Below are positions 1,494 to 25,645 of a stretch of 64,000 nucleotides of DNA, piece by piece. Below the pieces are notes generated by a model. That model saw only the letters and a program-made list of their open reading frames with translations. It ran no database searches and was not told the origin of the DNA. This DNA comes from Myxococcales bacterium. GTDB taxonomy: Bacteria > Myxococcota_A > Polyangia > Palsa-1104 > SHYY01. The position numbers were made by a program, and so were the translations under genes. Within the stretch, counting starts at the first letter, position 1, and the number at the start of each line of letters is the position of its first letter. The stretch spans positions 19,158 to 83,157 of the forward strand of contig SHYY01000002.1 in NCBI GenBank assembly GCA_009692555.1, given 5' to 3'.

Positions 1494-3113
<1,620 letters not shown>

Positions 3114-6976: not shown

Positions 6977-7007
6977 CGCGTCCTCCTCGCTCGCCGGACC
7001 CCTCGGG

Positions 7008-8303
7008 TCACAGTGGCAGCGTCACGTAGTAGGCGAACTGGCCGCGCCCGACGAGCAGCACGGTGTCCTGATCGGGCGGCAGCTCGCCGAGCGCCTCCTG
7101 GAAGTCGGCGGCGCCGCGGACTTCGCGCGAGCCGAGCTGAAGGATCGCGTCGCCCGGGCGGAGGCCGATCCGGTCGGCGATCGATCCGCGCGCGACCTTG
7201 GCGACCATCGCGGCGCGCCCGCCCCCGTCGCTGACCTCGATCCCGAGGCGCCGCCGGATCCGCGCCGCCTGCTCGCGCGGATCGAGGCCGCCTGCCTTCA
7301 GCTTGAGCGCGCCGCGGGTGGTCTTGAGGAGCACCTCATCGCCGGCGAGGACGTGCGCAGTCCGCTCGAGGTAGCTCTGCAGGTCGGGCGTCGGCGCGTC
7401 ACCCACCCCGACGATCATGTCGCCCGCGCGCAGCCCCGCAGCGTGCGCCGGGCTCCCCTCCTCGACGGCAACCACCACCACGCCGCCGCGCGCCGGTCGC
7501 GCTTCGAGACCGAGCCAGCCGTGGCGCACCCGGCCAAAGCGGAGCAGATCATCGACGATGGCGCGTGCGCGATCGATCGGGATCGCGAAGCCGATCCCCG
7601 GGCCGCCGCGGTGGACCGCGGTGTTGATCCCGATCAGCTCGCCGTCGAGGTTGACCAGCGGCCCGCCGGAGTTCCCGGGGTTGATCGCCGCGTCGGTCTG
7701 GAGGAAGTCCTCGTAGACCCGATGGGGGGTCTTCACCACGCGGTGAAGCGCCGAGACGACGCCGGTGGTGACGGTGTGGGCGAGGCCGAACGGGTTGCCG
7801 ATCGCGATCACCGTCTCGCCGACCATCAGGTCGCGCGCGGTCCCGATCGCCACCGCCGGGAGCGCCTGCCTGGTGATGATCTTGAGCACCGCCAGATCGA
7901 ACGAGGCGTCCGCGCCGACGAGCTGGGCCGGCAGCTCGCGCCCGTCGCTGAGCTGCACCTTGATCCGCGCCGCGCCGGCCACCACGTGCTCGTTGGTGAT
8001 CACGAAGCCGCGCGGATCGACGATCACCCCCGAGCCGAGCGAGGTGCTGCCGGAGCGCGGGCGCCCGGGGAGGTCGAGCTCCTCGGGATCGGGCAGCCCG
8101 AAGCCGCCCTGGAATGGGCTCTGGCGCGGCCGCTCCTCGGTGAACACCGCCACCACCGCCGGGGCCACCTTCTCGACCGCGGTCACCACCGGGGTCCGGC
8201 GGGGCGAGCCGGGGGGCGGCGCGGCGGCGGCCTCTGGGTCGAGCCGGACGAGCGCGACGAGCGCGAGGAGAGCAGGGACAATGCGGACGATTGGGCGAGT
8301 CAT
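7008..8303 (-). CDS. HtrA/DegP-family periplasmic serine protease with two PDZ domains
   Basis: Only the last 431 codons of the 1133-aa track ORF are real. Start ATG 8303 (MTRPIVRIVPALLALVAL signal). Catalytic motifs TNEHVV, DLAVLK, GNSGGPL. Confidence 0.92.
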   Translation of the reverse strand: MTRPIVRIVPALLALVALVRLDPEAAAAPPPGSPRRTPVVTAVEKVAPAVVAVFTEERPRQSPFQGGFGLPDPEELDLPGRPRSGSTSLGSGVIVDPRGFVITNEHVVAGAARIKVQLSDGRELPAQLVGADASFDLAVLKIITRQALPAVAIGTARDLMVGETVIAIGNPFGLAHTVTTGVVSALHRVVKTPHRVYEDFLQTDAAINPGNSGGPLVNLDGELIGINTAVHRGGPGIGFAIPIDRARAIVDDLLRFGRVRHGWLGLEARPARGGVVVVAVEEGSPAHAAGLRAGDMIVGVGDAPTPDLQSYLERTAHVLAGDEVLLKTTRGALKLKAGGLDPREQAARIRRRLGIEVSDGGGRAAMVAKVARGSIADRIGLRPGDAILQLGSREVRGAADFQEALGELPPDQDTVLLVGRGQFAYYVTLPL

Positions 8304-8396
8304 GGGTGCGGGGACTCGACGGGAAGGCTCCGCCAGAGCGCCCGGTGGTGTCAAGCGCCCCTGGGTTGTGACCAGGGATGTGACACGATTCTCCCG

Positions 8397-10355
8397 ATGG
8401 CCAACCAGCAAGAGCACCCGCAAGACACCCTCTCGTCGCTGCCGACCAATCTGCCCCCGCCTTCCGGCGAGGCGCTCGCGCCGTTCGATCCGGTCGCCGC
8501 GGAGTCGGCGCTGGCGGGCGCGCTCGGCGAGGAGGGCTTCAAGCGCTACCAGGACCGCGAACAGATCGGCGAGGGCGGGATGGGCGAGGTGCGCCTGTGC
8601 CTCGACGGGCGCTTCGGACGCGAGGTGGCGATGAAGCTGGTGCGCGCCCCGGAGGTGACCGACCACGGATCGCACGCCGACCGGCAGATGCGCTTCCTCC
8701 GCGAGGCGCGCGTGCAGGGGAGGCTGGAGCATCCGTCGATCGTCCCGGTGTACGATCTCGGCCGCGATCCGGCCGGCGCGCTCTACTTCACGATGAAGCG
8801 CGTGCGCGGCCTCACCGTCGAGGAGATCCTCCTCCAGCTCGCCGCGGGCGACCCTGCTGCGTTGCAGCAATTCTCGCGACGCAAGCTCCTCTCGGCCTTC
8901 ACCAGCGTCTGCCTGGCGGTCGATTTCGCGCACGCCCGCGGTGTGCTCCACCGCGACCTGAAGCCGTCGAACATCATGCTCGGCGACTTCGGCGAGGTGT
9001 ACGTGCTCGACTGGGGGCTGGCCAAGCTGGCCGGGCGCGAGGAGCCGGCGCCGCGCGGGGAGGCCACCACCGTCGATGATCCGGAGCTCGGCGCAGGCCG
9101 CACCGCCCACGGGGCGATGATGGGGACGCCCGGCTACATGGCGCCCGAGCAGGTGCGCGGCGAGGTCGACAAGCTGGATGCCCGCACCGACGTCTATGCG
9201 CTCGGGGCGATCCTGTTCGAGCTGCTCGCCTTGCAGCCGCTCCACGGGCGCAACAGCGCCGCCGAGGTGATCGCCGGAACGCTCACCGGCGCCGATGCGC
9301 GGGCCTCGGTGCGGGCCCCGGATCGCGATGTGCCGCCGGAGCTCGAGGCGGCGTGCATCCGTGCGACCCGCCTCGATCCCGCGGCGCGCCACCCGACGGC
9401 GCGCGAGCTGTGTCAGGCGGTGGAGCGCTTCCTCGACGGGGATCGCGATCTCGGACTGCGGCGTGAGATGGCCGCGTCGCACGCGCAGCGCGCCGAGGAG
9501 GCGGCGACGGTGGCGCTCTCCGCCGAGCCCACCGCCAACGACGAGCGGAGCCGGGCGCTGCGCGAGGTGGGGCGCGCGCTGGCGCTCGACCAGGGCCACA
9601 TCGGGGCGACCCGCACGCTGGTCCGGCTGCTCACCGAGCCGCCGCGCGAGCTGCCGCCCGCCGCCCAGGCCGAATCGGATCGGGTGGCGATGCGCGAGCA
9701 GCGCGCCGCGTCGCGGATCGGCTTCTTCGTCTACCTGAGCTGGTTCCTCTACGCGCCCGCGGTCCTCTGCATGGGCGTGCGCAACTGGACGGTGGTCGGG
9801 ATCTCGGCGGCGCTGTGGGGCGGCGCGGCGCTGTGCTGCCTCGGGATGTACCTGCGGCCGCGGCCGGTCAACACCACCCCCTACCCGCTGTTGATCCTGA
9901 GCTCGCTGGCGGTCGCCTCGAGCTCGCTCCTCTTCGGCGTCTACATCCTCCTGCCGAGCCTCGCCACGGTGAACACCATGTCCTACATGCTCGGCCGCGA
10001 GCGCTCCCACCGCCTGCTGGTGCTGGTGATCGGCTGCCTGACCATCCTCGGCCCGCTCGCCCTGGAGACCTTCGGGCTGATCCCATCGGCCTACGACTTC
10101 CACGACGGCGTGATGACCGTGCTCCCCCGCGTCCTCGATCTGCCGCCGATCCCGACCCAGGCCAGCCTCCTGATCATCCACCTCGCGGTGGTGGTCACGT
10201 CGAGCCTGATCATCGCCCGGATCCGCGACGTGAGCGCGCTCGCCGAGCGACGACTGCAGATGCAGGCGTGGCAGCTCCAGCAGCTCGCTCCCGATCAGGC
10301 GAAGGGCGCCATCGAGCCGGAGATGCCGTCCGATCCGAGGTGCTTCATCTCGTAG
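8397..10355 (+). CDS. Ser/Thr protein kinase with C-terminal multi-TM region
   Basis: Start ATG 8397 within the 1254-aa track ORF. GEGGMGEVRL, VAMKLV, HRDLKPSNIML, DWGLAK, APEQ. Hydrophobic C-terminal third. Confidence 0.9.
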   Translation: MANQQEHPQDTLSSLPTNLPPPSGEALAPFDPVAAESALAGALGEEGFKRYQDREQIGEGGMGEVRLCLDGRFGREVAMKLVRAPEVTDHGSHADRQMRFLREARVQGRLEHPSIVPVYDLGRDPAGALYFTMKRVRGLTVEEILLQLAAGDPAALQQFSRRKLLSAFTSVCLAVDFAHARGVLHRDLKPSNIMLGDFGEVYVLDWGLAKLAGREEPAPRGEATTVDDPELGAGRTAHGAMMGTPGYMAPEQVRGEVDKLDARTDVYALGAILFELLALQPLHGRNSAAEVIAGTLTGADARASVRAPDRDVPPELEAACIRATRLDPAARHPTARELCQAVERFLDGDRDLGLRREMAASHAQRAEEAATVALSAEPTANDERSRALREVGRALALDQGHIGATRTLVRLLTEPPRELPPAAQAESDRVAMREQRAASRIGFFVYLSWFLYAPAVLCMGVRNWTVVGISAALWGGAALCCLGMYLRPRPVNTTPYPLLILSSLAVASSSLLFGVYILLPSLATVNTMSYMLGRERSHRLLVLVIGCLTILGPLALETFGLIPSAYDFHDGVMTVLPRVLDLPPIPTQASLLIIHLAVVVTSSLIIARIRDVSALAERRLQMQAWQLQQLAPDQAKGAIEPEMPSDPRCFIS

Positions 10356-11134: not shown

Positions 11135-14100
11135 TCAGCCCGGCGTCGAGTCCTCGAGGATCTCGCTCGCCGGGGGCGCGGCGAGGTACCTGGAGCGCCA
11201 CTGCTCGTCGCGCAGGCGGGCCGCCTTTTTCCGCACCTCGGCGCGCGCGCGTGCCAGCGAGGCCGCGGCCTCGTCGCTGCGACCGGCGCCGGCGGCCAGC
11301 CGGGCGTGGTGGAAGAGCACCTCCTCGGCCTCGTCGACCCGTCCGGCGTCGCAAAGCGCCACCGCCTCGGCGGAGCGATCGGCGGCCTCCTCGCGGCGCC
11401 CCGAGCGCGCGAGGGCCAGCCCCTCGGCGATCAGCCCGAAGGCCACCCCGTTCGGGATCGCCGCCTCGCGGGCCAGCTTGACCGCCGAGCGCGCGAGATC
11501 GAGCGGCAGGTCCGGCGGCGCACCCGCCGCGAGCTTGCAAAACGCAAGGTAGACCAGCGCGCGGATCTCCTGGTAGCGGCTCCGGGTCGCCTGCGCCAGC
11601 TCGAGGCCGCGCTCGAGGTGCTCCGCCGCCGCCGCGATTTCGCCGCGCCGGAGATCGACCTGGCCGATCGAGATGCTGGCGTCGGTGAGGGCGCTCATGT
11701 CGCGGCTCGCCTCGTCGAGCTCGAGGGCCCGGACGAGGTGGCGGTGCGCGCGATCGTGATCGCCGAGCAGCGCATGAACCTGACCGATGTTGCCGAGGGT
11801 GGCGCCGAGCCCGACCCGGTCGCCGATCTCCTGATCGATCTTCAGCGAGTGCTTGTAGTGAGCGAGCGCCTGCTCGAGGTCGCCCTGGCTGATCGCCACG
11901 TTGCCGAGGTTGTTCAGCGTCGCGGACTCGCGGCGGCGACTGCCGAGGCGGCGGTGGATCGCGAGCGCCTCGCCGTAGGCCCGCGCGGCCTCCTGCCCGC
12001 GCCCCTGATCGCGCTCGATGGTGCCGACGGCGCTTTGCACCTGGGCGCGTTCGAGGAGTCCGGCGCGGTCCTCGGGGTCGCCGAGCGCGGCGAGGGCGTC
12101 GCGGGTGCAGAGGAGCGCCTCCGGATAGCGTCCGATGTGGATCAGCAGCGTTGCGTCGAGGCGCAGCGCCTCCGCCTCGGTGATCCGATCGCCCGCCGCG
12201 CGCGCGGTCTCCCGGGCGCGGGCGCTCTCGCGGCGTGCGGCGGCATGCTTTCCGGTGTCGAGGTAGTAGGAGCTCAAACGAGCCAGCGAGCGCGCCAGGC
12301 GCCCCGCGTCGCCGAGGTCCTCCGCCAGCCGGCGCATGACGGTCACCTCGGCCAGCTCGTCGTCGCGCTGACCGAGGGCGCGCAGGATCTGCTCGCGCTC
12401 GGCGTGAAGATCCCAGCACTCGGCCCGCAGAGCCGGTTGGTCGCCGAAGAGCGCCAGCGCCTGGCCGAAGTGGCGCCAGGCCTCGGCGTTGCCCGAGACA
12501 TCGCGGGCGTGGATCCCGGCGCGGGCGAAGGCGCGACCCGCTTCGATCGGCTCCCCCGCCGCCTGGAGGTGATGGGCGATCCGCGCGTCGTCGGCGCCGC
12601 GATGGTAGGACGGCGATCCGGCGAGGCGCTCGGCGGCGCGGCGGTGGAAGGAGGCGCGCACCTCGGCGGCCAATCCACCGTAGGCGATCTCCTGGGCGAG
12701 CGCGCTGCGGAAGGCGAACTCTCCGCGCGGCTCCGTGGACCTCGCCGCCGCCTGGGGCCCCTCCTCGACCGGCACGAGCAACCCGCGCACGGTGAGGCGC
12801 TCGATCAGCGGCGCGGCGTCGACACTGTCGAGGAGGGCGGCGAGATCGACCGCGCGGAAGATCCGGCCGAGCACCGCCGCGGCGCGCACCGCGGCGCGCT
12901 CCTCGTCGGGGAGGCGGTCGAGACGGGCGCCGATCAGCGCCTCGATCGAGAGCGGCACGGCGACCTCGGTGTCGAGGCGCTTGAGGGCGAAGCCGCCGCT
13001 CTCGCCCACCGCCAGGATCCCGCGCTCGGCCAGCGACTCGAGGATCTCGTTCAGGTAGAACGGGTTGCCGCCTGCCCGGTCGAGGGTGGTGCGGATCAGC
13101 GCCGCCACCGCCTCGTCGTCGGGGCGCTCGAAGCGCGCGCGGAGGAGCCCCTCACGCGCCCGCGGGGAGAGCTCGCCGACGAAGATCGGGCTGACGTTCG
13201 GCTCGCCGAGCAGGATCTCGATCCGCGCGTCCTCGTGCAGCGTCTCGGGCCCCGGGACGCCCGCGCGGGTGGTCCCGGCGATGACGATCTCCACGCCACC
13301 GTCGTCGGTGTCCGCCAGCTCGGGGGGACGCGCCTCGTGGCGCGCGGTGGCGAGGATCAGGACCGGCCGCGGCAGCGGGTCGCGCGCCAGAGCGAGGAGG
13401 AGCTCGAAGGACTGGGTGTCGGCGAAGTGGAGATCCTCGACGATGAGCACCAGGGTGCGCTCGCGCGCCAGGCGGTCCCCGATGGCGCGGATGCCCTGGT
13501 AGAGACGGTGGCGGCGCTCCGCCGGGTCGATCTCGTCAGCGCCGGGCACGTGGAGACCGAGCAGGAGCGCGAGCGCCTCGGTGATCGGCTTCACCCGCTT
13601 CCCACCGTCGCCGCTGAACAGCTCGGCGACCCCTGCCTGGATCATCCGCTTCAGGTCGCGCGGCTCCGCAACGTCTCCCACGCCGAGGAGGTCGCGGGCG
13701 AGGTCGGCGGTGAGCGCGTAGGGGGTGTCGCGGCGGCCCAGGCTGCCGACGGTGCGGAGCACGAGGTGGGTGGCGGGATCGAGCCGCGCCCACAGCCGGG
13801 CGACGAGCGAGCGCTTGCCGACACCGCGATCGCCGACGGCAAGGAGAAATCGCCCCTGGCCGCGGGTCGCCACGTCGCGCGCGGCGTCCTCCAGCGCCTG
13901 CAGCTCCAGCTCGCGTCCCCACAGCGCGCTCCCCGGCGCCGTCATCCGCTCCGCCCGCGGCGTCGCGCCGAGCGTTCGGAACACGCGCACACGCGACGGC
14001 TCGCCCGGCTCCACGGCTTCGGCCGGGGAGGCGCCTTGCGCCGCGAGGCCGATCGCCTCCAGCTCCTCGAACCGCCACTCGCCGCGCGCCGCCCGGAAGA

Positions 14101-15682
14101 CCTCGCCACCGACGAGCACCTCCCCCGGCATCGCCTCCTCGGCGAGGCGGCGCGCTATGCTCCCGACCGGGGCGCACAGCTCGTGCTCGAAGCGCGCGTC
14201 GCCGGTGACCGTGCTCCGCCCGACCAGCGCCGCCCCGGCCTCGACCCCGATCGAGAGGTGCAGCGGCGGGCGGAGATCGCGCACGATCCCGTCGAGTGCG
14301 TCGATCAGCGCCAGCGCGAGCTGGATCGCCCGCGACGGGTCGTCCTCGGCGCCCACCGGCAAGCCGATCAGGTAGGTGAAGCCGCGCTCGTCGAGGCGAT
14401 CGGCATGGGCGTGATGCTTGTATGCGACGTGCTCCGCCACGCGCAGGAAGTCGAGCAGCACGCCGCGCGCGCGCGTTTCGCCGAGCTGCCGACGCAGCGC
14501 CGCGAGCCCGCCGAGCGCCCCCTCGACCACCACCACGTTCTTCCGCTCGCGCGGTCCGGCCACGAGCGGCAGGTGGCCCGCGTCGCCCGAGGTCACCGAC
14601 GCGGTCGGCGTCACCGACGGTCCGGTGGCGAGCTCGTCGTCGTTCGGCTGGGTAGGCGAGGTCTCCTCGGTCGAGGAGGCCACCGCGCGCCGCGCCGCAG
14701 CACGCGCCTCGACTCCGCCGGCCTCCTGCGGCTCTTCCAGCGCGCGGATCCGGTTGCGCTCGGCCTGCGGCACCACCTGCGCGACGAACGCCGCCATCGC
14801 CCCCGACTCGTAGATCTCCCCCTCCTGCGACCCGAGGCTGAAGAAGAACTTGCCGAGCGCCTGCTGGAGATCGCGCGCGGTCTGGAAGCGATCCTCGGCC
14901 CGCCGCGCGAGGGACTTGAGGATGATCCGCTCGAGCTCCTCGGGCAGATCGGGATCGGCGTCGCGCGGGCGCGGCACGAGCGCGCTGCGGATCGCCTCCA
15001 GCGCCTGCCGCTCGCCCATTCGCCCGAACAGCGCGCGCCCGGTGGTGAGCTCGTAGAGGACGATCCCCGCGGCGAAGATGTCCGAGCGCCGGTCGATGGG
15101 GAGGCCCGACGCCTGCTCGGGCGACATGTAGGCGAACTTTCCCTTCACCACCCCTTCGTCGGGCTTCTGCCCGCGCGCCCGCGCGATCCCGAAGTCGACG
15201 ATCTTCACCGCTCCGTCGAAGCTGACCAGGATGTTCTGCGGCGAGACGTCGCGGTGAACGATGTGCAGCGCCTCGCCCGCGTCGTCGGCCTTGCGATGGG
15301 CGTAATCGAGCCCCTTCGCCACCTGCTGCATCACGTAGGCGGCGAGCCCCGGGGGCACCTTGCGGCCGGCGGCGGCGGCGGCGTGGATCAGGCGGAGGAG
15401 ATCGACCCCCTCGACGCGCTCCATCGCCAGGAAGTAGGTGTGCCCGAGCTGCCCGTAGTTGAAGGTCTGGACGATGTTCGGGTGATTCAGGATCACCCCG
15501 ATCTTCGCCTCGTCCTCGAACATCGCGCGGAACTGCGGCGCCTGGGCCAGCCCGGGGTGGATCTTCTTGATCACCAGCACCTTCGAGAGCCCCCCGATGA
15601 GCGGCTCGCGCGCGAGGAACACCTCGGCCATGCCGCCGGCGCCGAGCCGTCGCAAGATCTGGTATTTGCCGAACGGCTCCAC
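11135..15682 (-). CDS. 1515-aa multidomain Ser/Thr kinase: kinase, cyclase-homology-like region, P-loop NTPase (STAND-like), TPR array
   Basis: GAGGMAEVFLA, LVIKKI, HRDVSPQNILV, DFGIAR, SPEQ. Central Walker A GDRGVGKRS. C-terminal repeated A/L-rich TPR-like helices. The 1674-aa plus-strand ORF is its shadow. Confidence 0.93.
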   Translation of the reverse strand: MEPFGKYQILRRLGAGGMAEVFLAREPLIGGLSKVLVIKKIHPGLAQAPQFRAMFEDEAKIGVILNHPNIVQTFNYGQLGHTYFLAMERVEGVDLLRLIHAAAAAGRKVPPGLAAYVMQQVAKGLDYAHRKADDAGEALHIVHRDVSPQNILVSFDGAVKIVDFGIARARGQKPDEGVVKGKFAYMSPEQASGLPIDRRSDIFAAGIVLYELTTGRALFGRMGERQALEAIRSALVPRPRDADPDLPEELERIILKSLARRAEDRFQTARDLQQALGKFFFSLGSQEGEIYESGAMAAFVAQVVPQAERNRIRALEEPQEAGGVEARAAARRAVASSTEETSPTQPNDDELATGPSVTPTASVTSGDAGHLPLVAGPRERKNVVVVEGALGGLAALRRQLGETRARGVLLDFLRVAEHVAYKHHAHADRLDERGFTYLIGLPVGAEDDPSRAIQLALALIDALDGIVRDLRPPLHLSIGVEAGAALVGRSTVTGDARFEHELCAPVGSIARRLAEEAMPGEVLVGGEVFRAARGEWRFEELEAIGLAAQGASPAEAVEPGEPSRVRVFRTLGATPRAERMTAPGSALWGRELELQALEDAARDVATRGQGRFLLAVGDRGVGKRSLVARLWARLDPATHLVLRTVGSLGRRDTPYALTADLARDLLGVGDVAEPRDLKRMIQAGVAELFSGDGGKRVKPITEALALLLGLHVPGADEIDPAERRHRLYQGIRAIGDRLARERTLVLIVEDLHFADTQSFELLLALARDPLPRPVLILATARHEARPPELADTDDGGVEIVIAGTTRAGVPGPETLHEDARIEILLGEPNVSPIFVGELSPRAREGLLRARFERPDDEAVAALIRTTLDRAGGNPFYLNEILESLAERGILAVGESGGFALKRLDTEVAVPLSIEALIGARLDRLPDEERAAVRAAAVLGRIFRAVDLAALLDSVDAAPLIERLTVRGLLVPVEEGPQAAARSTEPRGEFAFRSALAQEIAYGGLAAEVRASFHRRAAERLAGSPSYHRGADDARIAHHLQAAGEPIEAGRAFARAGIHARDVSGNAEAWRHFGQALALFGDQPALRAECWDLHAEREQILRALGQRDDELAEVTVMRRLAEDLGDAGRLARSLARLSSYYLDTGKHAAARRESARARETARAAGDRITEAEALRLDATLLIHIGRYPEALLCTRDALAALGDPEDRAGLLERAQVQSAVGTIERDQGRGQEAARAYGEALAIHRRLGSRRRESATLNNLGNVAISQGDLEQALAHYKHSLKIDQEIGDRVGLGATLGNIGQVHALLGDHDRAHRHLVRALELDEASRDMSALTDASISIGQVDLRRGEIAAAAEHLERGLELAQATRSRYQEIRALVYLAFCKLAAGAPPDLPLDLARSAVKLAREAAIPNGVAFGLIAEGLALARSGRREEAADRSAEAVALCDAGRVDEAEEVLFHHARLAAGAGRSDEAAASLARARAEVRKKAARLRDEQWRSRYLAAPPASEILEDSTPG

Positions 15683-16775: not shown

Positions 16776-18371
16776 TCACGGGCTCTGAGAGCTGGCCATC
16801 GATCGGTCGAGCAGCCAGCGCAGCGCCGCGAGCCGCTCCCGGACCTCGCGCGCCGTCGGGCGGGCCGCAGGATCGCGCGACAGCAACCGATCGACCAGCT
16901 CGCGCACATCGCGGGTGATGACGTGGCCGAGCGACGTGATCACCGAGTCGGGGAGCGCGGCGAGCAGCGTCTCGCCACGCACCAGGGCCGCGCGATCGAA
17001 CGGCGCCGCGCCGGCCAGCATCTCGTGGAGGATCACCCCGACGGCATAGAGGTCCGATGCCGTGGTCGCCTCACCACGCCTCTGCTCGGGCGCCATGTAA
17101 CCGAGGGTGCCGGTGGCCTCGGTGGGCGCGGCGTCGACAAGGTGGGCGAGACCAAAGTCACCCAGGACGAGGTCGCCCTCGGCGAGCGCGGCCAGCGACG
17201 ACGGGAGCGGCCGGAAGAGCAGGTTCCCGGGCTTGATGTCGCGGTGGACGATCCCCGCGCGGTGGACCGCCTCGAGGGTGGTGCACAGCTCCACGCCGCG
17301 CCGAAGCGCCGCCGCCGGGGCCAGCCGCCCGCGCTGGAGGAGATCGCGCAGCGTCCCGCCCGCGCACAGCTCCATCGCCACCAGATTGCGCTCCTCGTCG
17401 AGGTCGTAGATCGCCACCACGCCCGGGTGGCGGAGCGCGGCGGCGATCCGCGCCTCGTTGAACGAGCGCACTCGCGCCTCGGCCCGCGCCCGCGCCGAGG
17501 CGTTCGGGTGGAGCAGCTTGAGCGCCACGTCGCGCTCGAGCTCGAGGTCGCGCGCGAGGTAGACCGCCCCCGCGGCGCCGCGCCCGAGCTCGCGCTTCAG
17601 GCGGTAGCGCGCGCTCACTTCCGGTCCGAGCCCGCCCACGCCGGCGATGGTCTCCGCGGCGGCGGCGGTGTGGGAGGACTCCTGGCGCGGCCGGAGGCGA
17701 TCGGCTCGGCCGCGCGCCTTCGGGTAGTCGATGTCGACGGCGATCACCCGCTCGTAGTCGCGCCGCGCCGCGGCGAGATCGCCCGCCCGCTCGTGGGCCT
17801 CCGCGAGCAGGAAGCGGGCGCGCAGCGCATGCTGCGGCGCAGCAAGAAGGCGCTCCAGGTGCGGGATCGCCGTCTCGTGCTCCAGGCGATCGCAGAGCAG
17901 CTCGACGAGCCGCGCCGCGAGGTCGAGGTCGTCGGGGCGCGCGGCGGCAAAGCGGGCGAGGAGCTCGATCGCGGTGCGCTCGCGGTGGGTGGCGAGGAGG
18001 CGCTCGATCGCCGACCAGAACTCACGACCCCCGAGGACGATCGCGCTCGGAGGCGCCGGCGGGACGGGCGATCCGGCGAGCGGGCTCTGCTCCGGCGCGG
18101 GCCCCACGCGGGCGAGCAGCTGGCGCAGGAAGGCCTCCTCGGCGGGCATCGGCGGCGCCTCCGCGTCGGGAGGACGCGCGGGGGGCGCCTGTGGCCTGCG
18201 CGGCGACGGCGGCTCGGGCGGCCGGAAGGCGCCCTTCACCCGGCTCCAGAACGACTGAGCCTCATCGACCCGCCGAAGGCGGCTCCACAGCGTCCCCTGG
18301 GTCTTCGGGGACGGAGCCTCATCGACCCGCCGAAGGCGGCTCCACAGCGTCCCCTGGGTCTTCGGGGACAT
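16776..18371 (-). CDS. Ser/Thr protein kinase with N-terminal duplicated peptide, Pro-rich linker and TPR-like region; kinase domain is C-terminal
   Basis: Start ATG 18371-18369 overlaps the TGA of the upstream FHA gene by 1 nt. GRGAAGAVYLA, VALKLL, HRDIKPGNLLF, DFGLAH, APEQ. Confidence 0.9.
   Translation of the reverse strand: MSPKTQGTLWSRLRRVDEAPSPKTQGTLWSRLRRVDEAQSFWSRVKGAFRPPEPPSPRRPQAPPARPPDAEAPPMPAEEAFLRQLLARVGPAPEQSPLAGSPVPPAPPSAIVLGGREFWSAIERLLATHRERTAIELLARFAAARPDDLDLAARLVELLCDRLEHETAIPHLERLLAAPQHALRARFLLAEAHERAGDLAAARRDYERVIAVDIDYPKARGRADRLRPRQESSHTAAAAETIAGVGGLGPEVSARYRLKRELGRGAAGAVYLARDLELERDVALKLLHPNASARARAEARVRSFNEARIAAALRHPGVVAIYDLDEERNLVAMELCAGGTLRDLLQRGRLAPAAALRRGVELCTTLEAVHRAGIVHRDIKPGNLLFRPLPSSLAALAEGDLVLGDFGLAHLVDAAPTEATGTLGYMAPEQRRGEATTASDLYAVGVILHEMLAGAAPFDRAALVRGETLLAALPDSVITSLGHVITRDVRELVDRLLSRDPAARPTAREVRERLAALRWLLDRSMASSQSP
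18257..18370. repeat. near-perfect 57-bp tandem duplication (2 copies) at the extreme 5' end of the kinase gene
   Basis: Copies at 18257-18313 and 18314-18370 encode SPKTQGTLWSRLRRVDEA(P/Q) twice, directly after the start codon. Confidence 0.9.
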
Positions 18372-19549
18372 CAGGCCTCCACCTCGACCCGCGCTGGCGC
18401 CTGCTTTGGCTCGCCCACCTCGACGACGTCGCCGCGCAGGAGCTGGATGCGCGCTCCGGCGCGTGCGCCGTTGAGCTGGAGCGGGTGCCCGCCGATCGCA
18501 GAGAGGCAGGGCCGCCCGTCGCTGAAGCGGAGCTCGAAGGCGCCGCCCGCGAGGAGAAAGGGCGTTGCTGCGGCGATCACCTTCAAGCCGCGATCGAGCC
18601 CGCGCGCGACCGTCAGCGTCAGCACGCCGCTCTCGACGCGGAAGCGGATCCCGCACAGCTCCCCCAGGCCAAGCTCGCCCTCCTGGTCCAACGGCAGCTC
18701 GCCACCGACGGCGCAGCCGGCGAGGAAGGTGCCGTTCTTCGACGCGCAGTCGCGCACCCGGAAGCGCCCGCCGGCCTCGAGGATCTCGGCGTGGCGGCGC
18801 GAGATCCCGCCGTCGCGGAGCGCCACCTCGCACGATCCCTCGCGCCCGAGCCCGAGGGGAAACGCGCCGACGTAGGTGGCCCGCTCGGCGCCGATCCGGA
18901 GCGTCACCCGCGACGCGGTGAGCCGCCGCGCCTCGAGCGACTCGATCAGGCGCGCGTACTCACCGACGGGAGATACCTCCATGCAGCCCCGGAGCGCGGC
19001 GAGGGCGCGGTCGCGCTCCCCGGCGGCGAGCCAGCGCTGGTAGTCCTCGAACCCCTCGGAGAGGAGGGTGTCCTTCCGGCGCCGCTTCTCGTCGCGCGCG
19101 AGCACCGCCTCGAGCCGATCCACCTCGCCCGCGCGCTGGTAGCTGTCGGCGGCCTCGCGCTCGTCGCCGGCCAGCTCGTGGCACTCGCCCGCGCCCGCCA
19201 GGTCATCGGCCGCGGTGAAGAGCGCCGCCGCCTCGCGCAGCACCGCGCGATCGGACTCGGAGATCACGCCGCTGGCGCGCACCAGGAGGAGCATCGCGCG
19301 GGCGACGCGCCGCCGGACGTCGCGGTCCACGTCCTGCCCGCCGTCGCTCCAGCGCACCGCGGCGCGCAGCTCGGCGAGGCGCGCTTCGTGTCCTCCTGCG
19401 CGCTCCGCCGCGAGGAGGTGCATCTCGCCCACCTTGTGCCGCTCGCCCGAAAGCGCGTAGGCGCGGGCCGCGTCGCCATAGTCGCCCGCTGCCTCGGCCG
19501 CGAGGGCGCGCCGGAAGTCGGCCGAGAAGACGCGCTTGAAGAACGCCAC
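18371..19549 (-). CDS. FHA domain-containing protein with N-terminal TPR-like helices
   Basis: 392 aa, GTG start 19549. FHA signature GREGSCEVALRDGGISRRHAEI...RVRDCASKNGTFL. Translationally coupled to the downstream kinase. Confidence 0.88.
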   Translation of the reverse strand: MAFFKRVFSADFRRALAAEAAGDYGDAARAYALSGERHKVGEMHLLAAERAGGHEARLAELRAAVRWSDGGQDVDRDVRRRVARAMLLLVRASGVISESDRAVLREAAALFTAADDLAGAGECHELAGDEREAADSYQRAGEVDRLEAVLARDEKRRRKDTLLSEGFEDYQRWLAAGERDRALAALRGCMEVSPVGEYARLIESLEARRLTASRVTLRIGAERATYVGAFPLGLGREGSCEVALRDGGISRRHAEILEAGGRFRVRDCASKNGTFLAGCAVGGELPLDQEGELGLGELCGIRFRVESGVLTLTVARGLDRGLKVIAAATPFLLAGGAFELRFSDGRPCLSAIGGHPLQLNGARAGARIQLLRGDVVEVGEPKQAPARVEVEA

Positions 19550-19552
19550 GGG
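19520..19552. repeat. 33-bp perfect direct repeat, copy 1 (contains the FHA gene start and first 10 codons)
   Basis: GGCCGAGAAGACGCGCTTGAAGAACGCCACGGG is identical to 20177-20209. Confidence 0.95.
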
Positions 19553-19555
19553 TGA

Positions 19556-20137
19556 TCACTGCGCCGAGTCGAGCAGCTCCACCTTGTCGTAGATCTCCGC
19601 GAGCGAGAGGTCGACGCCCAGCGAGGAAAGTGTCACCGCCCCTTCGCCCACTCGCTCCGTGAAGAGCCACTCGGGGTGCTCGATCCGGCGGTAAAGCTCC
19701 ACTCGCCGCTCGGCCTGCGCGACCAGCAGGATCTCCTGCAGCGACGGGAGCCTCCGGTAGTGGGCGAACTTGGCGCCGCGATCATAGAGTTCCGTGGAGT
19801 CGGAGAGCACTTCGACCAGCAGGAGCGGGTTGGTCAGCGACAGCGGGTCCCGCGAGTGGTACTTCGCCGGGCCGCAGACGACCGTGACGTCGGGGTAGGT
19901 GTAGAGGCGGGTCTCCGCGATGTGGACGCGCTGATCGCTCCCGAGCGCAAGACAGGGCTTGCCGCGCAGGAGGCCGCGCAGCGCTCCCTGGATATTGCCA
20001 GCGATGAGCGTGTGGCGCGTTGATGCGCCGGCCATCGCGACGATGCGTCCGTTGACGTACTCGTGCTTGTCCTCGCTGCCCCGCTCTCGAGCGAGATACT
20101 CGTCCTCGGTGGCGAGTTCCTGGTGCGCGGCGTCCAT
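19556..20137 (-). CDS. Uma2-family (DUF820, PD-(D/E)XK-like) endonuclease
   Basis: ATG 20137 (MDAAHQELATEDEY...). Family-typical YEL-like N-terminus HEYVNGRIVAM, then PDVTVV and LLVEVLSDST core. Stop lies 6 nt upstream of the FHA start. Confidence 0.85.
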   Translation of the reverse strand: MDAAHQELATEDEYLARERGSEDKHEYVNGRIVAMAGASTRHTLIAGNIQGALRGLLRGKPCLALGSDQRVHIAETRLYTYPDVTVVCGPAKYHSRDPLSLTNPLLLVEVLSDSTELYDRGAKFAHYRRLPSLQEILLVAQAERRVELYRRIEHPEWLFTERVGEGAVTLSSLGVDLSLAEIYDKVELLDSAQ

Positions 20138-20176
20138 TCGCAAAGTCTACCACCGCTGACGGCGACGGCGACGGCA

Positions 20177-20209
20177 GGCCGAGAAGACGCGCTTGAAGAA
20201 CGCCACGGG
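20177..20209. repeat. 33-bp perfect direct repeat, copy 2 (orphaned copy of the FHA start region)
   Basis: Identical to 19520-19552. On the minus strand it opens an 18-codon ORF (MAFFKRVFSACRRRRQRW) that ends 12 nt before the Uma2 ATG. Confidence 0.95.
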
Positions 20210-20238
20210 CGGAAGTGTATATCGTATGCTGCGCGCTG

Positions 20239-21819
20239 ATGCTCGAGCACGTCGCCCTCCACCAGACGCGCTTCAACGCTCCCGGCGTCGCCCCCGATTC
20301 GCGCGGCATCCTCCTCGGCAAGCAGGGCGCGGTGCTGTTCGCGTCGATCGACAAGCTGGTCGGCTTCTTCCGCATCCTCTCCGAGGAGGCGCCGCTCGAC
20401 GACCTCCTCCCGACGCTGAAGCTGCTCCAGGTGAGGACCCCGCTCCAGAGCCGCGAGTTCCTGATCCTGTTCCACGCCGCCTCCTCCTACCTCGTCGACC
20501 GCGCCGCCCGCATCACCACGCTCCTCGGCGGCCTCACCTTCACCGGCTCGGGCAAGCACTACGTGAAGTACCGCGACGAGGGCTCACCGCTCGGCTACGA
20601 CGTGAGCGAGCTGTTCGCCGAGGCGGAGGCCGGCAGCGCCGACTACCTCCTCTACGCCGAGGCCTTCACCCAGGGCTACTCGCGGGTGAAGGAGATCCCG
20701 TTTTCGCAGCTCGTCTTCCGCCTCTCACCGCGCGCCATCCCCGGCGAGGGTCCGCGATCGCGGAGGCGCGGCGCGGCGGTGAAACGGTCCGCGGCGCCGG
20801 ACCGGGCCGCCTCCGGCGAGGCGCTGTGGCTGGTGGTCCGCCCGGGCCTCGGTTCGAGCGTGCTCACCTACCTGTGGCGCAATCGCGTCGAGAGCCACGC
20901 GGCGCTGGTCGAGCGCGAGGGCGCGGGCGGGGCCTTCGGCGGGCGTGAGAAGTATCTGCTCATCCGCGCGCAGAACTTGCCCGGGCGGATGCTCGATCTG
21001 TTCACCGACGTGCCGGGGATCGAGATTCACCGCGCGGTGGGAGAGAACTTCGTCGTCGAGCTGGGCTACCGCCACCCGCTGCGCCTCGAGTCGTGTCAGA
21101 GCGTGTTCGATCGCGAGAAGTTCTACGTCTTCTCCGGACAGCGCGACGCGGTCGACGTGATCGCCGCGGCGGGCGGCCTGCCGCTCACCGCCTCGGAGAA
21201 GCTGATCACGGCCGGCTTCGACCTCGGCGAGCGGAAGGAGCCCACGGCGAACGTGGCCAGCAAGGCGGCCGAGGTGGCGGTGATGCTGCGCCTCGTGCCG
21301 TCGTCGACCCCCCCGCGCAGGGTGAGCGCGACGCTCGTTTCATGGACGCACCTCGACTGGCTGAAGAAGCTGGTCTTCGCCGTTCCACCGCCGGTGCTCA
21401 CCGGCTACCGCGTGGCGCCGGTCGACGACGGGCTCCTGATCACCGGGGCGCGAGGGGTCGACGGTCTGCCGATCGGCGAGCTGTTCCAGGAGGCCGCGCC
21501 CTCGATCTACATCCCGGTCGGCTTCGAGTTCCTGCCGCGGATCTCCGAGTCGGTGCTGACCGATCACGTCGGCGGCGTGGGCGGGCGCGTGGTGCTGTTC
21601 CGGCGCGGCTCGGCGGCACCCTTCGCGGTCGCGGAGTCCGACTTCGAGCCCCTCGGTCGCCGCATGCTCGGCCGCCTCGAGATCGAGACCCGCCCGCGCA
21701 GCACACGAGCCGCCGTTCCCCGCCCTCCCGCCGACACGCTGGTCCAGAACGAGCCGCTCGGCGCGCTGCCACTGTGGGGTTTCCAGGGCGGCGAGATCCC
21801 CGAAGCGGGCGACGAGTAG
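20239..21819 (+). CDS. hypothetical protein (about 527 aa), no family recognised
   Basis: Long ORF with balanced, non-shadow composition (K, F, Y, I present). Start uncertain (GTG 20215 or ATG 20239). No catalytic motif seen. Confidence 0.7.
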   Translation: MLEHVALHQTRFNAPGVAPDSRGILLGKQGAVLFASIDKLVGFFRILSEEAPLDDLLPTLKLLQVRTPLQSREFLILFHAASSYLVDRAARITTLLGGLTFTGSGKHYVKYRDEGSPLGYDVSELFAEAEAGSADYLLYAEAFTQGYSRVKEIPFSQLVFRLSPRAIPGEGPRSRRRGAAVKRSAAPDRAASGEALWLVVRPGLGSSVLTYLWRNRVESHAALVEREGAGGAFGGREKYLLIRAQNLPGRMLDLFTDVPGIEIHRAVGENFVVELGYRHPLRLESCQSVFDREKFYVFSGQRDAVDVIAAAGGLPLTASEKLITAGFDLGERKEPTANVASKAAEVAVMLRLVPSSTPPRRVSATLVSWTHLDWLKKLVFAVPPPVLTGYRVAPVDDGLLITGARGVDGLPIGELFQEAAPSIYIPVGFEFLPRISESVLTDHVGGVGGRVVLFRRGSAAPFAVAESDFEPLGRRMLGRLEIETRPRSTRAAVPRPPADTLVQNEPLGALPLWGFQGGEIPEAGDE

Positions 21820-22949: not shown

Positions 22950-23059
22950 TGGCAAGTAACGTATTGTCACATAAGTCAAAATGATGGAAAGGCGGTTACG
23001 TACAATCTCTGTGATTGATATTATACATCTTGCAAATTGATGAAAAGAGCATATCGGCC
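22950..23059 (+). promoter_or_regulatory. AT-rich island upstream of the Fic gene (candidate promoter or foreign-DNA junction)
   Basis: gtaacgtattgtcacataagtcaaaatgatgg...gattgatattatacatcttgcaaattgatgaaaag is far more AT-rich than any other stretch of comparable length I noticed in the window. No confident -35/-10 assignment. Confidence 0.35.
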
Positions 23060-24187
23060 ATGATTTTCCAGGTGCCCAGGCTCGACGCCAGAGAGCTCGA
23101 GATCAGCGACCGGATCGAGGAGCTGAAGCAGCGCCTCGGCTATGCCACCCGGGCGCCCGCGCGACGCTGGCAAGGTCTGCTCCGCCGCAACTCGTTCGCG
23201 AACGCGATCCGCGGCTCGAACAGCATCGAGGGCTACAACGTCTCGGTCGACGATGCGGTGGCGGCCGCCGAGGGCGCGGAGCCCCGCGATGCCTCCGCTG
23301 ACACCTGGGCCGCGATCACCGGTTATCGAGCAGCGATGACCTATGTCCTGGAGCTGGCTGACGATCCGCATTTCTCGTTCTCGACCGATCTGCTGAGATC
23401 GCTGCATTTCATGATGATCCAGGCCGATCTCACCAGGCACCCGGGGCGATGGCGGCCAGGACCCATTTTCGTTCACGACGATCAGACCGACAGGACCCTC
23501 TACGAGGGGCCGCCCGCCGAGGACGTGCCGGCGATGGCGGCCGAGCTTGCCCTGGCGCTCAACCGGAAATCCGAGGAGCCGGTGACGGTGCGGGCGGCGA
23601 TGGCGCACTTGAACCTGGTGATGATCCACCCGTTCTCCGACGGCAACGGACGGATGGCGCGGTGCCTCCAGACGCTGGTCCTGGCGCGGGCCGGGACGCT
23701 CGCGCCGATGTTCTGCAGCATCGAGGAGTACCTCGGCAAGAACACGCAGAGCTACTACGACGTGCTTGGTGAGGTCGGCGGCGGCGCATGGCACCCGGAG
23801 CGCGATGCGAGGCCGTGGGTCCGATTCTGCCTCGCGGCTCACTTCCGCCAGGCGAGCACGCTGCTCCGTCGCTCGCGCGAGATGAGCCGGTTGTGGGAGG
23901 TGGCGGATCGCGAGCTCCGGAAGCGCGGCCTGCCGGAGCGAATGGTCGTGGCGTTCGTCGATGCGGCCATGGGCTTCCAGGTCCGCAACGCCACCTACCG
24001 CTGCGCAGCGGAGGTCTCCGATCAGGTCGCCGGGCGCGACCTCCGGCAGCTTGCGGTGGAGGGCTTTCTCGAGGCCGTCGGCGAGCGGCGCGGGCGCTAC
24101 TACAAGGCGTCGAGGCGCCTCGCGCAGCTGTTTGCCGGCCTTCGTGAGCCAAAGCAGACCGAAGATCCGTTCGCCGATCGTCTGTGA
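23060..24187 (+). CDS. Fic-family protein (AMPylase-type) with intrinsic inhibitory helix and C-terminal wHTH-like region
   Basis: Active-site HPFSDGNGRMAR. N-terminal SNSIEG fits the [ST]xxxE[GN] inhibitory motif. Start ATG 23060 (MIFQVPRLD). Confidence 0.9.
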   Translation: MIFQVPRLDARELEISDRIEELKQRLGYATRAPARRWQGLLRRNSFANAIRGSNSIEGYNVSVDDAVAAAEGAEPRDASADTWAAITGYRAAMTYVLELADDPHFSFSTDLLRSLHFMMIQADLTRHPGRWRPGPIFVHDDQTDRTLYEGPPAEDVPAMAAELALALNRKSEEPVTVRAAMAHLNLVMIHPFSDGNGRMARCLQTLVLARAGTLAPMFCSIEEYLGKNTQSYYDVLGEVGGGAWHPERDARPWVRFCLAAHFRQASTLLRRSREMSRLWEVADRELRKRGLPERMVVAFVDAAMGFQVRNATYRCAAEVSDQVAGRDLRQLAVEGFLEAVGERRGRYYKASRRLAQLFAGLREPKQTEDPFADRL

Positions 24188-24355
24188 GGTCCGGAGGCGC
24201 CGTCTGCGTGTCCTCGGTGCAAGCCGCTTGCGAGCACACGAGGAGACACCCGATGCGCCACCTGCTGATCGCCTTGACCGCTCCTCGAACGCAGGTAGCC
24301 ACCGCAGGGCAATCGAGTTCCCGTGGCGAGGTTCTGCGGTACACTGCCGCGCGCC

Positions 24356-25645
24356 ATGGAGAAGCCGCCTCCCGTCCCCGTGCCGCTGACCCCCGCCGTC
24401 CGCACCGATCCTGCGCCAGCGACGCCGGCAATAGCCGGCGTGCAGCAAGCTCGGAGCGCAACGGCGCGCCCTCCCGCCACCTCCTCGCCCGCGATCGCCG
24501 TGCGCCTCCAGGAGGCGGCGCGGGTGATGGAGCAGCACTTCCTCGACAAGCAGGAGATCATCCGCCTCCTGCTCATCTCCACCGTCGCTGGCGAGCACAT
24601 GGTCCTGGTGGGGCCGCCCGGCACCGCCAAGAGCGCGCTGGTGCGCCTGTTCGCCCGGCTCGTCGACGCGAAGTACTTCGAGTACCTCCTCACCCGCTTC
24701 ACCGAGCCGAACGAGCTGTTCGGGCCGGTCGATATCCGTGCCTTCCGGGAGGGGGTCTACACCCGCCGCACCGAGACCATGCTCCCCGAGGCGGAGATCG
24801 TCTTCCTCGACGAGATCTTCAAGTCGAACTCGGCGATCCTGAACTCGCTGCTGACGATCGTCAACGAGCGCACCTTCTCCAACGGGTCGAAGGTGATGAA
24901 GGTGCCGCTGCTCTCGATGTTCGGCGCCTCGAACGAGGTCCCGAACGACGAGAACCTCGCGGCGATCTTCGACCGCTTCCTGATCCGCGTCGCGTCCGAC
25001 AACCTCGACGGCTACCACTTCCACAACCTCGTCTCGCGCGGCCTCGCGACGGAGACGGCGAAGATCACCGGGCGCGAGGATCAGATCAAGCCGCTCCTCT
25101 CGGCGCGCGATCTCCACGAGCTGCACCGCCGCTTCGATCAGCACCTCCAGTTCAGCGAGGACTTCCTCTCGAAGTACAAGGGGATGATCTTCCAGATCCG
25201 ATCGGAGGGGATCTCGGTCTCCGATCGGCGGGTGGTGAAGCTGCTCAAGCTCTTCGCCGCGTCGGCGGTGGTCGACGGACGCCAGCAGGCGAACGACTCC
25301 GACTTCTTCATCCTCCGGCACATCTGGAACAACCTCGACCAGACCGAGATCCTCGACGAGATCGTGAAGCCGGTGGTCGATCGCTACTTCCGAGATCATC
25401 CGGATGCGCGCCGCTTCACCGCCGGCGGCGCAGGCCTCGACGAGATCCTCGCCGAGCTGAAGATCATCCGCGAGGTGCTGACCTCGGGCGAGCAGCTCTC
25501 CGACATCCAGCTCTTCTCGCAGCTGAAGAACCTGAACGAGATCAAGGCGGCGCTCCAGGCGGTCGACTCCGAGACCGCGCGCCGGATGATCGGCGAGATC
25601 GACGCGCTGCTCGAGAACCTCTTCGCGTCGTCGAAGTTCGGCTAG
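24356..25645 (+). CDS. RavA/MoxR-type AAA+ ATPase with Pro/Ala-rich N-terminal extension
   Basis: Walker A GPPGTAKS, Walker B IVFLDEIFK, and FEYLLTRFTEPNELFGP plus LNSLLTIVNERTFSNG, which closely parallel my recollection of E. coli RavA. Start ATG 24356 (alternative GTG 24323). Confidence 0.88.
   Translation: MEKPPPVPVPLTPAVRTDPAPATPAIAGVQQARSATARPPATSSPAIAVRLQEAARVMEQHFLDKQEIIRLLLISTVAGEHMVLVGPPGTAKSALVRLFARLVDAKYFEYLLTRFTEPNELFGPVDIRAFREGVYTRRTETMLPEAEIVFLDEIFKSNSAILNSLLTIVNERTFSNGSKVMKVPLLSMFGASNEVPNDENLAAIFDRFLIRVASDNLDGYHFHNLVSRGLATETAKITGREDQIKPLLSARDLHELHRRFDQHLQFSEDFLSKYKGMIFQIRSEGISVSDRRVVKLLKLFAASAVVDGRQQANDSDFFILRHIWNNLDQTEILDEIVKPVVDRYFRDHPDARRFTAGGAGLDEILAELKIIREVLTSGEQLSDIQLFSQLKNLNEIKAALQAVDSETARRMIGEIDALLENLFASSKFG

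Follow-up and report, generated by a model that had tools for sequence, protein, structure and literature searches.

A putative Uma2 nuclease gene between perfect 33-bp copies of a neighboring gene start in a Myxococcales contig

How does a free-standing nuclease gene come to lie within the first codons of another gene, while the resident gene keeps an intact start? This question is raised by a locus in a 64,000-nt stretch of DNA from a Myxococcales bacterium (GenBank assembly GCA_009692555.1, contig SHYY01000002.1, positions 19,158 to 83,157), which is called the window below and is numbered from its first nucleotide. Here, a gene of the Uma2/DUF820 family is bracketed by two identical copies of the start of its neighbor, a gene for an FHA-domain protein. 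A preliminary description of the sequence had proposed that this arrangement is a footprint of how Uma2 genes spread. From comparison with orthologous loci we read the arrangement as an insertion with target duplication, and we give roughly an even chance to the possibility that the inserted DNA was horizontally acquired and passively captured by end-joining repair at an offset double-strand break.

The duplicated gene start and the ancestral site

The 33-mer GGCCGAGAAGACGCGCTTGAAGAACGCCACGGG occurs in direct orientation at positions 19520-19552 (copy 1) and 20177-20209 (copy 2), and the two copies match at 33 of 33 positions without a mismatch, exactly as the preliminary description had it. 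No third copy was found in the window when as many as three mismatches were tolerated, and the number of occurrences expected by chance is 0.00 (mean of 100 dinucleotide shuffles). The identity has sharp ends, such that the flanking base differs between the copies both before and after the repeat. The parts of the locus are as follows, with all of the genes concerned (FHA, Uma2 and a kinase gene described below) on the minus strand.

18371-19549, minus strand: FHA-domain gene (PF00498), 392 amino acids, the recipient of the insertion
19520-19552, minus strand: repeat copy 1, consisting of CCC, the GTG start (19549-19547) and codons 2-10 of the functional FHA gene; it runs into the ancestral downstream sequence
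19553-20176, minus strand: inserted segment of 624 bp, starting with TG and ending with CA on the Uma2 sense strand; reduced G+C content, no terminal inverted repeats
19556-20137, minus strand: Uma2/DUF820 nuclease gene (PD-(D/E)XK fold), 193 amino acids, with its ATG at 20137-20135 and its TGA stop at 19558-19556
20147-20206, minus strand: orphan leader open reading frame (ORF) of 19 codons plus TAG (20149-20147), which starts at the duplicated FHA GTG, encodes MAFFKRVFSACRRRRRQRW and ends 9 nt before the Uma2 ATG
20177-20209, minus strand: repeat copy 2, the orphaned FHA start; it runs on from the ancestral upstream spacer with its conserved TACACT motif

The duplicated stretch spans -3 to +30 relative to the FHA GTG and is ordinary FHA coding sequence in which no dyad symmetry was detected. 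Together with one repeat, the 624-bp insert makes a unit of 657 bp. Uma2 is the sole credible gene in these 624 bp, and so the earlier statement that the copies bracket exactly one gene holds, as does the reported distance of 6 nt (19550-19555) between the Uma2 stop and the FHA start. On the other side, 39 nt separate the Uma2 ATG from copy 2 upstream. The leader ORF had been given 18 codons and actually has 19 sense codons; the 12-nt gap once placed between it and Uma2 is correct if the stop codon is counted, the TAG itself lying 9 nt before the ATG. The orphan copy is no longer needed for making a protein and yet has not diverged from its partner, and this identity argues for a recent event.

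An insertion of this kind predicts an ancestral site with a single 33-mer, and the preliminary description had suggested that removing one repeat plus the intervening 624 bp would restore a simple FHA 5′ end. Two further features, which lie upstream of the FHA gene, are needed to make the comparison.

20210-20238, no strand assigned: ancestral divergent spacer between the fvmX7 and FHA genes, with TACACT (minus strand, 20219-20214) 7 nt before the orphan GTG
20239-21819, plus strand: divergent gene with an fvmX7 domain (assigned by domain match), the first gene of a MoxR-type ternary system

Of the 114 homologues of the FHA protein, the closest is 74% identical, and none of the eight that were examined as DNA or gene maps carries a Uma2 gene. 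Among these relatives are six different orthologous FHA loci that lack the unit, and the empty-site comparison proposed earlier thereby supports an insertion, though the relatives are distant (58-74% protein identity). The distance from the divergent fvmX7 gene to the FHA gene is 57 nt in L008/L009 (58%) and 170 nt in L013-L015 (73%). A different gene lies upstream of FHA in L017 (74%) and L099 (73%), the FHA promoter motif of L005-L007 (71%) is preceded by a gene for a 396-amino-acid protein without a Pfam match (L005, 3784-4974), and the P0002 locus has a TonB-receptor gene in the upstream position. At the P0005 locus (JGI 3300047160), a 178-amino-acid ORF occupies the gap and begins 11 nt from the fvmX7 start, where the FHA start would be expected. 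A scan of genome contigs with the FHA protein returned only distant FHA-domain matches and no orthologous locus.

In an alignment with the orthologs (A5), the sequence upstream of copy 2 (CGATATACACTTCCG; CGATATACACT...) is homologous to what precedes the FHA GTG in the relatives, and the sequence downstream of copy 1 (GACTTCCGGCGC...) is homologous to their codons 11 onward. The orthologs thus read as if the flank to the left of copy 2 were joined through a single repeat to the flank to the right of copy 1. The alignment points decisively to an ancestral site with one 33-mer, which gained 624 bp and a further copy with breakpoints precisely at the ends of the repeat. Excision of one repeat and the insert does restore the FHA 5′ end as had been foreseen. 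By this comparison, the unit is shown to be a lineage-specific insertion with a 33-bp target duplication, and the locus offers an unusually clean before-and-after view of one acquisition, with exact breakpoints, a perfect duplication and an intact host start.

The contig was assembled from a metagenome, and the duplication might have been created by mixed strains or by the assembler collapsing or expanding a short repeat. The repeat length of 33 is also a common assembler k-mer size, and the public contigs break at the repeat, although such a break is expected of k=31 contigs at a 33-bp repeat. We checked the junctions on the k=31 contigs of four independent freshwater-metagenome runs (X1-X4) from two studies. 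Taken together, these contigs contain each of the four junctions that connect the repeat to the FHA body, to the 3′ end of Uma2, to the 5′ flank of Uma2 and to the spacer, and they do so at similar depth, which is 7-10x in run X1. In that run the 33-mer forms a separate unitig at 23.7x, more than twice the junction depth, and this ratio fits at least two repeat copies per genome. Moreover, a 33-bp repeat is far below read length and can be resolved by ordinary assemblers, and a chimeric join would share a k-mer once and not duplicate it. An artefact is very improbable in our view. The check for misassembly that had been called for is therefore favorable with regard to the junctions and the doubled depth of the repeat, but the contigs do not phase the two copies.

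This lack of phase counts against the insertion as we read it, because the k=31 contigs would fit just as well a mixture in which empty sites and 657-bp circles are equally abundant. Such a mixture would be expected if the 33-bp copies were the attL and attR sites of a small, excisable integrative cassette, wherein a 657-bp circle was integrated by a single crossover, either by a recombinase encoded elsewhere or by homologous recombination. The presence of identical direct repeats around a single-gene unit agrees with this idea, as does the repeat unitig at somewhat more than twice the depth of its flanks. An equally abundant circle is implausible, however, because the molecule cannot replicate. 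There is no recombinase in the unit or its scanned neighbors, and the repeat is ordinary host coding sequence without dyad symmetry. A foreign circle would also have to carry the FHA start of this very lineage beforehand, whereas orthologs at 71-74% identity differ at 3-6 of the 33 repeat positions. The cassette model thus only pushes the origin of the arrangement one step back, and we regard a cassette of this type as quite improbable.

The inserted gene and the operon it entered

The Uma2 protein matches PF05685 (COG4636) over profile positions 2-164 of 172, with an E-value of 6.1e-32 and a score of 110.9 bits where the cut-off is 27, and it also matches the PADLOC candidate defense family PDC-S03 (E 6e-22). 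Its AlphaFold2 model (pLDDT 91.6, pTM 0.88) finds its best matches in the Protein Data Bank among 3OT2, 6OKH, 9Y1L and 1WDJ, with a probability of 1.00 and TM-scores up to 0.83; these are DUF820 structural-genomics entries only. A phmmer comparison with 9Y1L gives an E-value of 2e-7. All 25 columns that are invariant across 31 homologues are kept, including D83, E109, S112 and K123, and the putative active-site acidic and lysine motifs (YPD..., EVLS..., GAKF) are present. On the basis of these matches and the model, we take the gene to be an intact one that encodes a putative nuclease.

Does the unit correspond to a known type of mobile element? The preliminary description stated that no integrase or transposase is present, and this is borne out. 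The unit has no transposase or integrase gene, Uma2 being the only ORF with a family match in 19553-20176, and no integrase, transposase or recombinase was found among the approximately 24 ORFs of the window that were scanned. An insertion sequence would be expected to have a transposase, terminal inverted repeats and multiple copies in addition to a direct target duplication, and only the duplication, at 33 bp, is seen here. The two ends do not form an inverted repeat; the dinucleotides TG...CA alone agree. A second copy of the unit was not found in the window, and the closest protein among 5.8 billion sequences is only 73% identical, so the unit does not behave as a multi-copy transposon. 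Usual target duplications measure 2-14 bp. The earlier argument that 33 bp is too long for a transposase is therefore mostly right, but it is not absolute, because IS1634/IS1549-type elements (IS4 family) make long and variable target duplications. Nor does the unit resemble an integron cassette: it has no attC palindrome, for which the 3 nt between the Uma2 stop and repeat copy 1 leave no room, and no integrase is encoded among the scanned ORFs. As for a homing endonuclease gene, presence and absence at one homologous site is seen in the six distant loci that lack the unit, and no other genome was found to have this gene at the corresponding position. The closest Uma2 homologue (L016, 73%) is followed after its stop by sequence unrelated to the FHA start, and the next closest (L010, L011) sit in yet other contexts. 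Uma2 genes of this subfamily were not found in the viral contigs or phage genomes searched.

Composition and the upstream region both bear on the origin of the insert. The G+C content of the unit is ~0.67, compared with 0.75-0.78 for its neighbors, and its G+C content at third codon positions (GC3) is 0.88, compared with a typical 0.92-0.95. Two short elements lie upstream of the Uma2 coding sequence.

20144-20155, minus strand: GGTGGTAGACTT upstream of the Uma2 ATG, common to L016 (GGTGGTAGGCTT); contains a TANNNT -10-like hexamer (TAGACT) 6 nt before the ATG and includes the TAG of the leader ORF
20158-20175, no strand assigned: (GACGGC)x3 hexamer run, directly adjoining copy 2 at the left insert junction; candidate filler

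Just 5′ of the ATG, the motif GGTGGTAG(A/G)CTT is likewise common to the window gene and L016. Since the G+C and GC3 values are lower than in the neighbors and the upstream motif recurs in L016 in a different context, the sequence indicates that the insert is foreign DNA that brought its own 5′ region, in which the TAGACT element may be a promoter belonging to Uma2. The (GACGGC)x3 run at the junction may represent filler sequence.

The idea that the inserted gene inherited the initiation region of its host is not simply correct, given that Uma2 has its own ATG and the upstream motif shared with L016, and the orphan start opens only a short upstream ORF. The properties of the FHA start are relevant here. 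In all FHA orthologs, a TANNNT hexamer (TACACT, TACAAT or TAGACT) lies 6-10 nt before the GTG and a Shine-Dalgarno sequence is absent. These two traits suggest that the FHA messenger RNA is probably leaderless, in which case the duplication (-3 to +30) would begin roughly at the transcription start. A simple scan of 19300-20400 for sigma-70 promoters and terminators gave no match, there is no full sigma-70 match for the TACACT spacer, and the region was not found in RNA runs. The old FHA promoter would now start transcription at the orphan GTG, and ribosomes would translate the 19-codon leader, then Uma2 and then FHA. The FHA GTG is 6 nt past the Uma2 stop, as is typical of genes read by translational re-initiation. 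Because the duplication includes the start codon of a probably leaderless gene, the insertion into a coding region would be tolerated.

The FHA gene is followed by the kinase gene mentioned above.

16776-18369, minus strand: Ser/Thr protein kinase gene, whose start overlaps the FHA stop (TGATG)

The overlap of the kinase ATG with the FHA stop suggests that the two genes are translationally coupled.

Routes of insertion

We favor passive capture through an offset break and fill-in, because the duplication is perfect and sharp-ended and is accompanied by neither a recombinase nor terminal repeats. By this route, a 624-bp piece of foreign DNA with an intact Uma2 gene and a short upstream region would have been inserted once, recently, between FHA codons 10 and 11, in the gene that heads the FHA-kinase operon of this freshwater Myxococcota-like genome. 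The target strands would have been broken 33 nt apart, at -3 and +30 of the FHA GTG, both of the 33-nt overhangs would have been filled in, and the foreign fragment would have been ligated between them by host end-joining and not by a transposase or integrase. The expected outcome is a perfect 33-bp direct duplication, the downstream copy of which regenerates an intact FHA gene. The role of Uma2 in its own arrival would then be passive.

A second duplication lies 1.15 kb from the insertion, within the kinase gene. Codons 2-39 of this gene are a 57-bp tandem duplication (18253-18366) in which codons 2-20 are doubled with 98% identity and with nothing between the copies. The kinase N-terminus accordingly reads M-[SPKTQGTLWSRLRRVDEAP]-[SPKTQGTLWSRLRRVDEAQ]-SFWSRVKG..., whereas orthologous kinases start directly with (M/V)SFWKR... 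and lack the duplication. This is the only large near-perfect tandem repeat in the window, and it fits the same offset-break and fill-in process operating without captured DNA. The (GACGGC)x3 run at the junction, if it is filler, agrees with this route as well.

The 57-bp duplication could also have arisen by slippage or template switching, and this draws attention to a replicative origin for the Uma2 unit. In microhomology-mediated or fork-stalling template switching, the nascent strand would have left the FHA gene at +30, copied 624 nt from a Uma2 locus and returned 33 nt back, which would likewise produce a repeat-insert-repeat structure with sharp ends and without a recombinase. This process requires a donor copy in the same cell, however, and none is present in the window, nor was an identical protein found on other contigs. 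The lower G+C content of the insert favors foreign DNA instead. We consider template switching rather unlikely.

Several points weigh against passive capture at an offset break. No strain-level empty site was found, the closest empty sites having only 58-74% protein identity. The insert ends with 5′-TG...CA-3′, as the ends of DDE transposons do (chance ~1/256). Finally, duplications that flank Uma2 genes at L089, L022/L025 and possibly L026 (see below) are hints of something beyond random capture. Even if the unit records only host repair with stray DNA, it is a clear natural example of a gene gained inside a coding region with the resident gene kept.

The position of the insertion, by contrast, speaks for passive capture. 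The fvmX7-FHA spacer is an insertion hot spot beside conflict-system genes, and three relatives carry three different genes in it. Both fvmX7 and bpMoxR (24323-25645) belong to the divergent operon, a MoxR-type ternary system. Between the fvmX7 partner gene and bpMoxR lies a Fic-domain gene (23015-24187; PADLOC SoFic, E 3e-46; GC3 0.85). The partner gene and bpMoxR are adjacent in L005 and L008, and the SoFic-like gene is thus a second lineage-specific insertion; no flanking repeat was found for it.

A 588-nt contig from a groundwater metagenome (run X6) is 94% identical to the fvmX7 5′ end and spacer (window 20195-20480) and retains only the initial 15 nt of the repeat (CCCGTGGCGTTCTTC). Beyond these it reads GCGCGCTACCAGATGCGGTTCACGCCGTAG..., a stretch that is related neither to FHA nor to the Uma2 insert and ends in a stop codon. 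Judged from this sequence, the relative has another break after FHA codon 4, 18 nt from the break in the window, and again an orphan start was left behind.

Elsewhere, the window contains a perfect (GTTTCC)x9 microsatellite at 45318-45371, repeats of 141-150 nt in a cysteine-rich minus-strand ORF (57091-58203) and several short G-rich tandem arrays at 1089-1395. Four Ser/Thr protein kinase genes lie within 18 kb (1431-3113, 6591-10355, 11135-15682 and 16776-18369), and one of them encodes a 1515-amino-acid protein with AAA_16 and TPR domains. Clustered Ser/Thr kinase genes are typical of Myxococcota.

Other Uma2 loci and known systems

Is the window an isolated case, or do Uma2 genes repeatedly lie between duplications of their neighbors' ends? 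The preliminary description had suggested a survey, for which 80 Uma2 loci were fetched from metagenomes and ~77 were assessed for direct repeats that flank the gene on both sides. In a reversed-sequence control, the score was never >12.

The closest parallel is L089, a Polyangiales-like metagenome contig with three different Uma2 genes (474-1058, plus; 1192-1785, minus; 2004-2567, plus) upstream of a DUF4041/T5orf172 gene. A 95-bp repeat, whose copies are 80% identical and include a 1-nt indel, lies on both sides of the third Uma2 gene and comprises the ribosome-binding site and first 19 codons of the DUF4041/T5orf172 gene. As in the window, the orphan start is upstream and the real start is downstream. 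The parallel is striking, and L089 can be viewed as an older counterpart of the window insertion. When an empty site was sought through the host gene, its nearest homologue (Polyangium aurulentum, 68%) proved to be in an unrelated context rich in integrase and IS21 genes. At L022/L025, the last 23 codons of an upstream aspartyl-protease-like gene are found again beyond Uma2 as a 70-bp, 89% identical duplication. At L026, a repeat of 85-135 nt occurs three times (1-85, 996-1138 and 2220-2362) and brackets a gene of unknown kind encoding 262 amino acids together with a Uma2 gene. Copies 1 and 3 of this repeat are identical, copy 2 differs by 10%, and there is an internal inverted repeat. The case is ambiguous, and the repeat may be a dispersed element.

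Other candidates were rejected. The perfect 35-bp flanking repeat of L055 belongs to two tandem Uma2 paralogues that share a promoter and 5′ coding sequence, and the repeats at L018 and L088 are remnants of tandem paralogues. At L094 the repeats are REP sequences that accompany a REP-associated tyrosine transposase, those of L045 are low-complexity heptamers, and those of L079 reflect internal repeats of a protein. A Roseomonas relative (H44) was tried as a plasmid empty site and set aside, the gene being present there too.

With the window included, flanking duplications are found at 3-4 of 77 Uma2 loci, compared with none of 125 non-Uma2 ORFs from the same sequences, around which the only flanking repeats were REP sequences near a REP-associated transposase and low-complexity DNA. 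The window prompted the search, however, and with it excluded the count is 2-3 of 76 (one-sided p ~0.05-0.14), against controls that are mostly core genes. A general association of Uma2 with flanking duplications is therefore suggestive and not established: the survey added L089 and L022/L025, with L026 ambiguous, and is not significant without the window.

These loci bring forward an explanation in which Uma2 is not a passenger. Uma2 could be a selfish, homing-endonuclease-like mobile gene that breaks targets near gene ends, such that repair installs the gene along with a long, variable duplication that rebuilds the host gene. Uma2/DUF820 proteins number in the millions in sequence databases. 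The family is described as expanded and of unknown function, with 15 or more paralogues in Thermus and in cyanobacteria (PMC1274311; PMC9403480). Its members are predicted nucleases whose gamma-proteobacterial context involves mobile elements (PMC3424549), and one has been described as a putative restriction gene with strain-dependent coverage (PMC9716671). Uma2 genes are wedged into conserved operons, both within the hox operon of cyanobacteria (hoxEF-sll1222-hoxUY; PMC4963859) and within a type III CRISPR (Cmr) operon, as Cmr4-Uma2-Cmr5 (PMC11855584). The nearest described analogue is found in fungal mitochondria, where free-standing homing-endonuclease genes (GIY-YIG/LAGLIDADG) separate atp6 or cob from partial duplicates of the C-terminal ends of these genes (PMC6279837). 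The intact window gene with its family-invariant residues, the large paralogue families and the three Uma2 genes in a row in L089 agree with a selfish gene, as do the imperfect terminal duplications at L089 and L022/L025, the 135-nt flanking repeat at L026 and the lack of such duplications around the 125 control ORFs.

Much speaks against this explanation, however. There are no near-identical copies at different places, and the closest homologue is not at an FHA site. The other duplications vary (70-135 bp) without common end motifs, the inserts there have long untranslated flanks, and the L026 repeat resembles a dispersed REP- or MITE-like element. Without the window the comparison stands at 2-3 of 76 against 0 of 125, and since most of the controls are core genes, flanking duplications of this kind might be found around recently acquired genes in general. 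The phage and viral collections searched yielded no such gene, and the nuclease activity is putative. We consider a selfish Uma2 unlikely, and the earlier notion of a footprint of how the family spreads goes beyond the data: the nearest protein is 73% identical, only 2-3 other loci have comparable duplications, and significance is lost without the window. The accompanying remark that mobility of Uma2/DUF820 genes has not been established agrees with the literature searched, in which we found no paper showing how these genes move and no biochemical characterization of a family member.

What would follow if the doubtful explanation were true after all? Uma2/DUF820 genes would be unrecognized selfish cassettes that enter first or last codons and leave a duplication of 33 to ~100 bp to rebuild the resident gene, a proposal we put forward only tentatively. 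It would explain both the abundance of Uma2 and its presence inside operons. Of the known examples, L089 and L022 would then be older and the window the most recent, and the 57-bp kinase duplication and the orphan FHA start of the X6 relative would be traces of further events at this operon. If the pattern is general, it provides a new insertion signature that can be searched genome-wide, and the empty-site sequence would be a substrate for a test of the Uma2 nuclease.

How does the locus compare with known systems? The cyanobacterial hox, Cmr and Planktothrix Uma2 genes resemble it in that a member of the family is lodged in another transcription unit near defense or conflict genes, but no junction analysis or duplication is reported for them. 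At L102 (Planktothrix agardhii plasmid NZ_LR882937.1, 2334-4159) and L103, the DUF1156 and DUF499 genes are separated by three small genes, one of them type I restriction endonuclease-like, one Uma2 and one hypothetical. A 1689-bp block with this Uma2 gene recurs at 98% identity in two other plasmids, beside a recombinase and a Tn3 transposase. We rejected the block as a cassette, in that its ends cut through a neighboring gene and it is a fragment of a larger rearrangement.

The endonuclease genes of fungal mitochondria share with the window a stand-alone nuclease gene between a functional host gene and a duplicated terminus, an intact host and the absence of a transposase. They differ in that they belong to proven homing families and have the 3′ end of the host duplicated, whereas the window has a putative nuclease and identical copies of a 5′ end. 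The seg and mob genes of T-even phages, which show intron-less homing, are likewise small nuclease genes inserted tightly between host genes, with hardly any non-coding DNA on either side. They rely on read-through from host promoters for expression, and some relatives have them where others do not. Those genes home without target duplication, however, and no close relative is known to carry Uma2 at the FHA site. The IS1634/IS1549 group shares a target duplication of tens of bases instead of 2-14, but these elements have a DDE transposase, terminal inverted repeats and multiple copies, none of which is found for the window unit.

Offset-nick fill-in followed by end joining, the route that we favor, is known from paired-nickase genome editing and from Ku/LigD repair. 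Like the window, it gives a duplication as long as the offset, sharp ends, no recombinase, optional filler, and plain tandem duplications when nothing is captured. We know of no documented case in which it served as a gene-acquisition route in Myxococcota. Any general role of such duplications would rest on three or four loci only; the window locus itself is a well-defined new variant of nuclease-gene insertion with duplication of a host-gene terminus.

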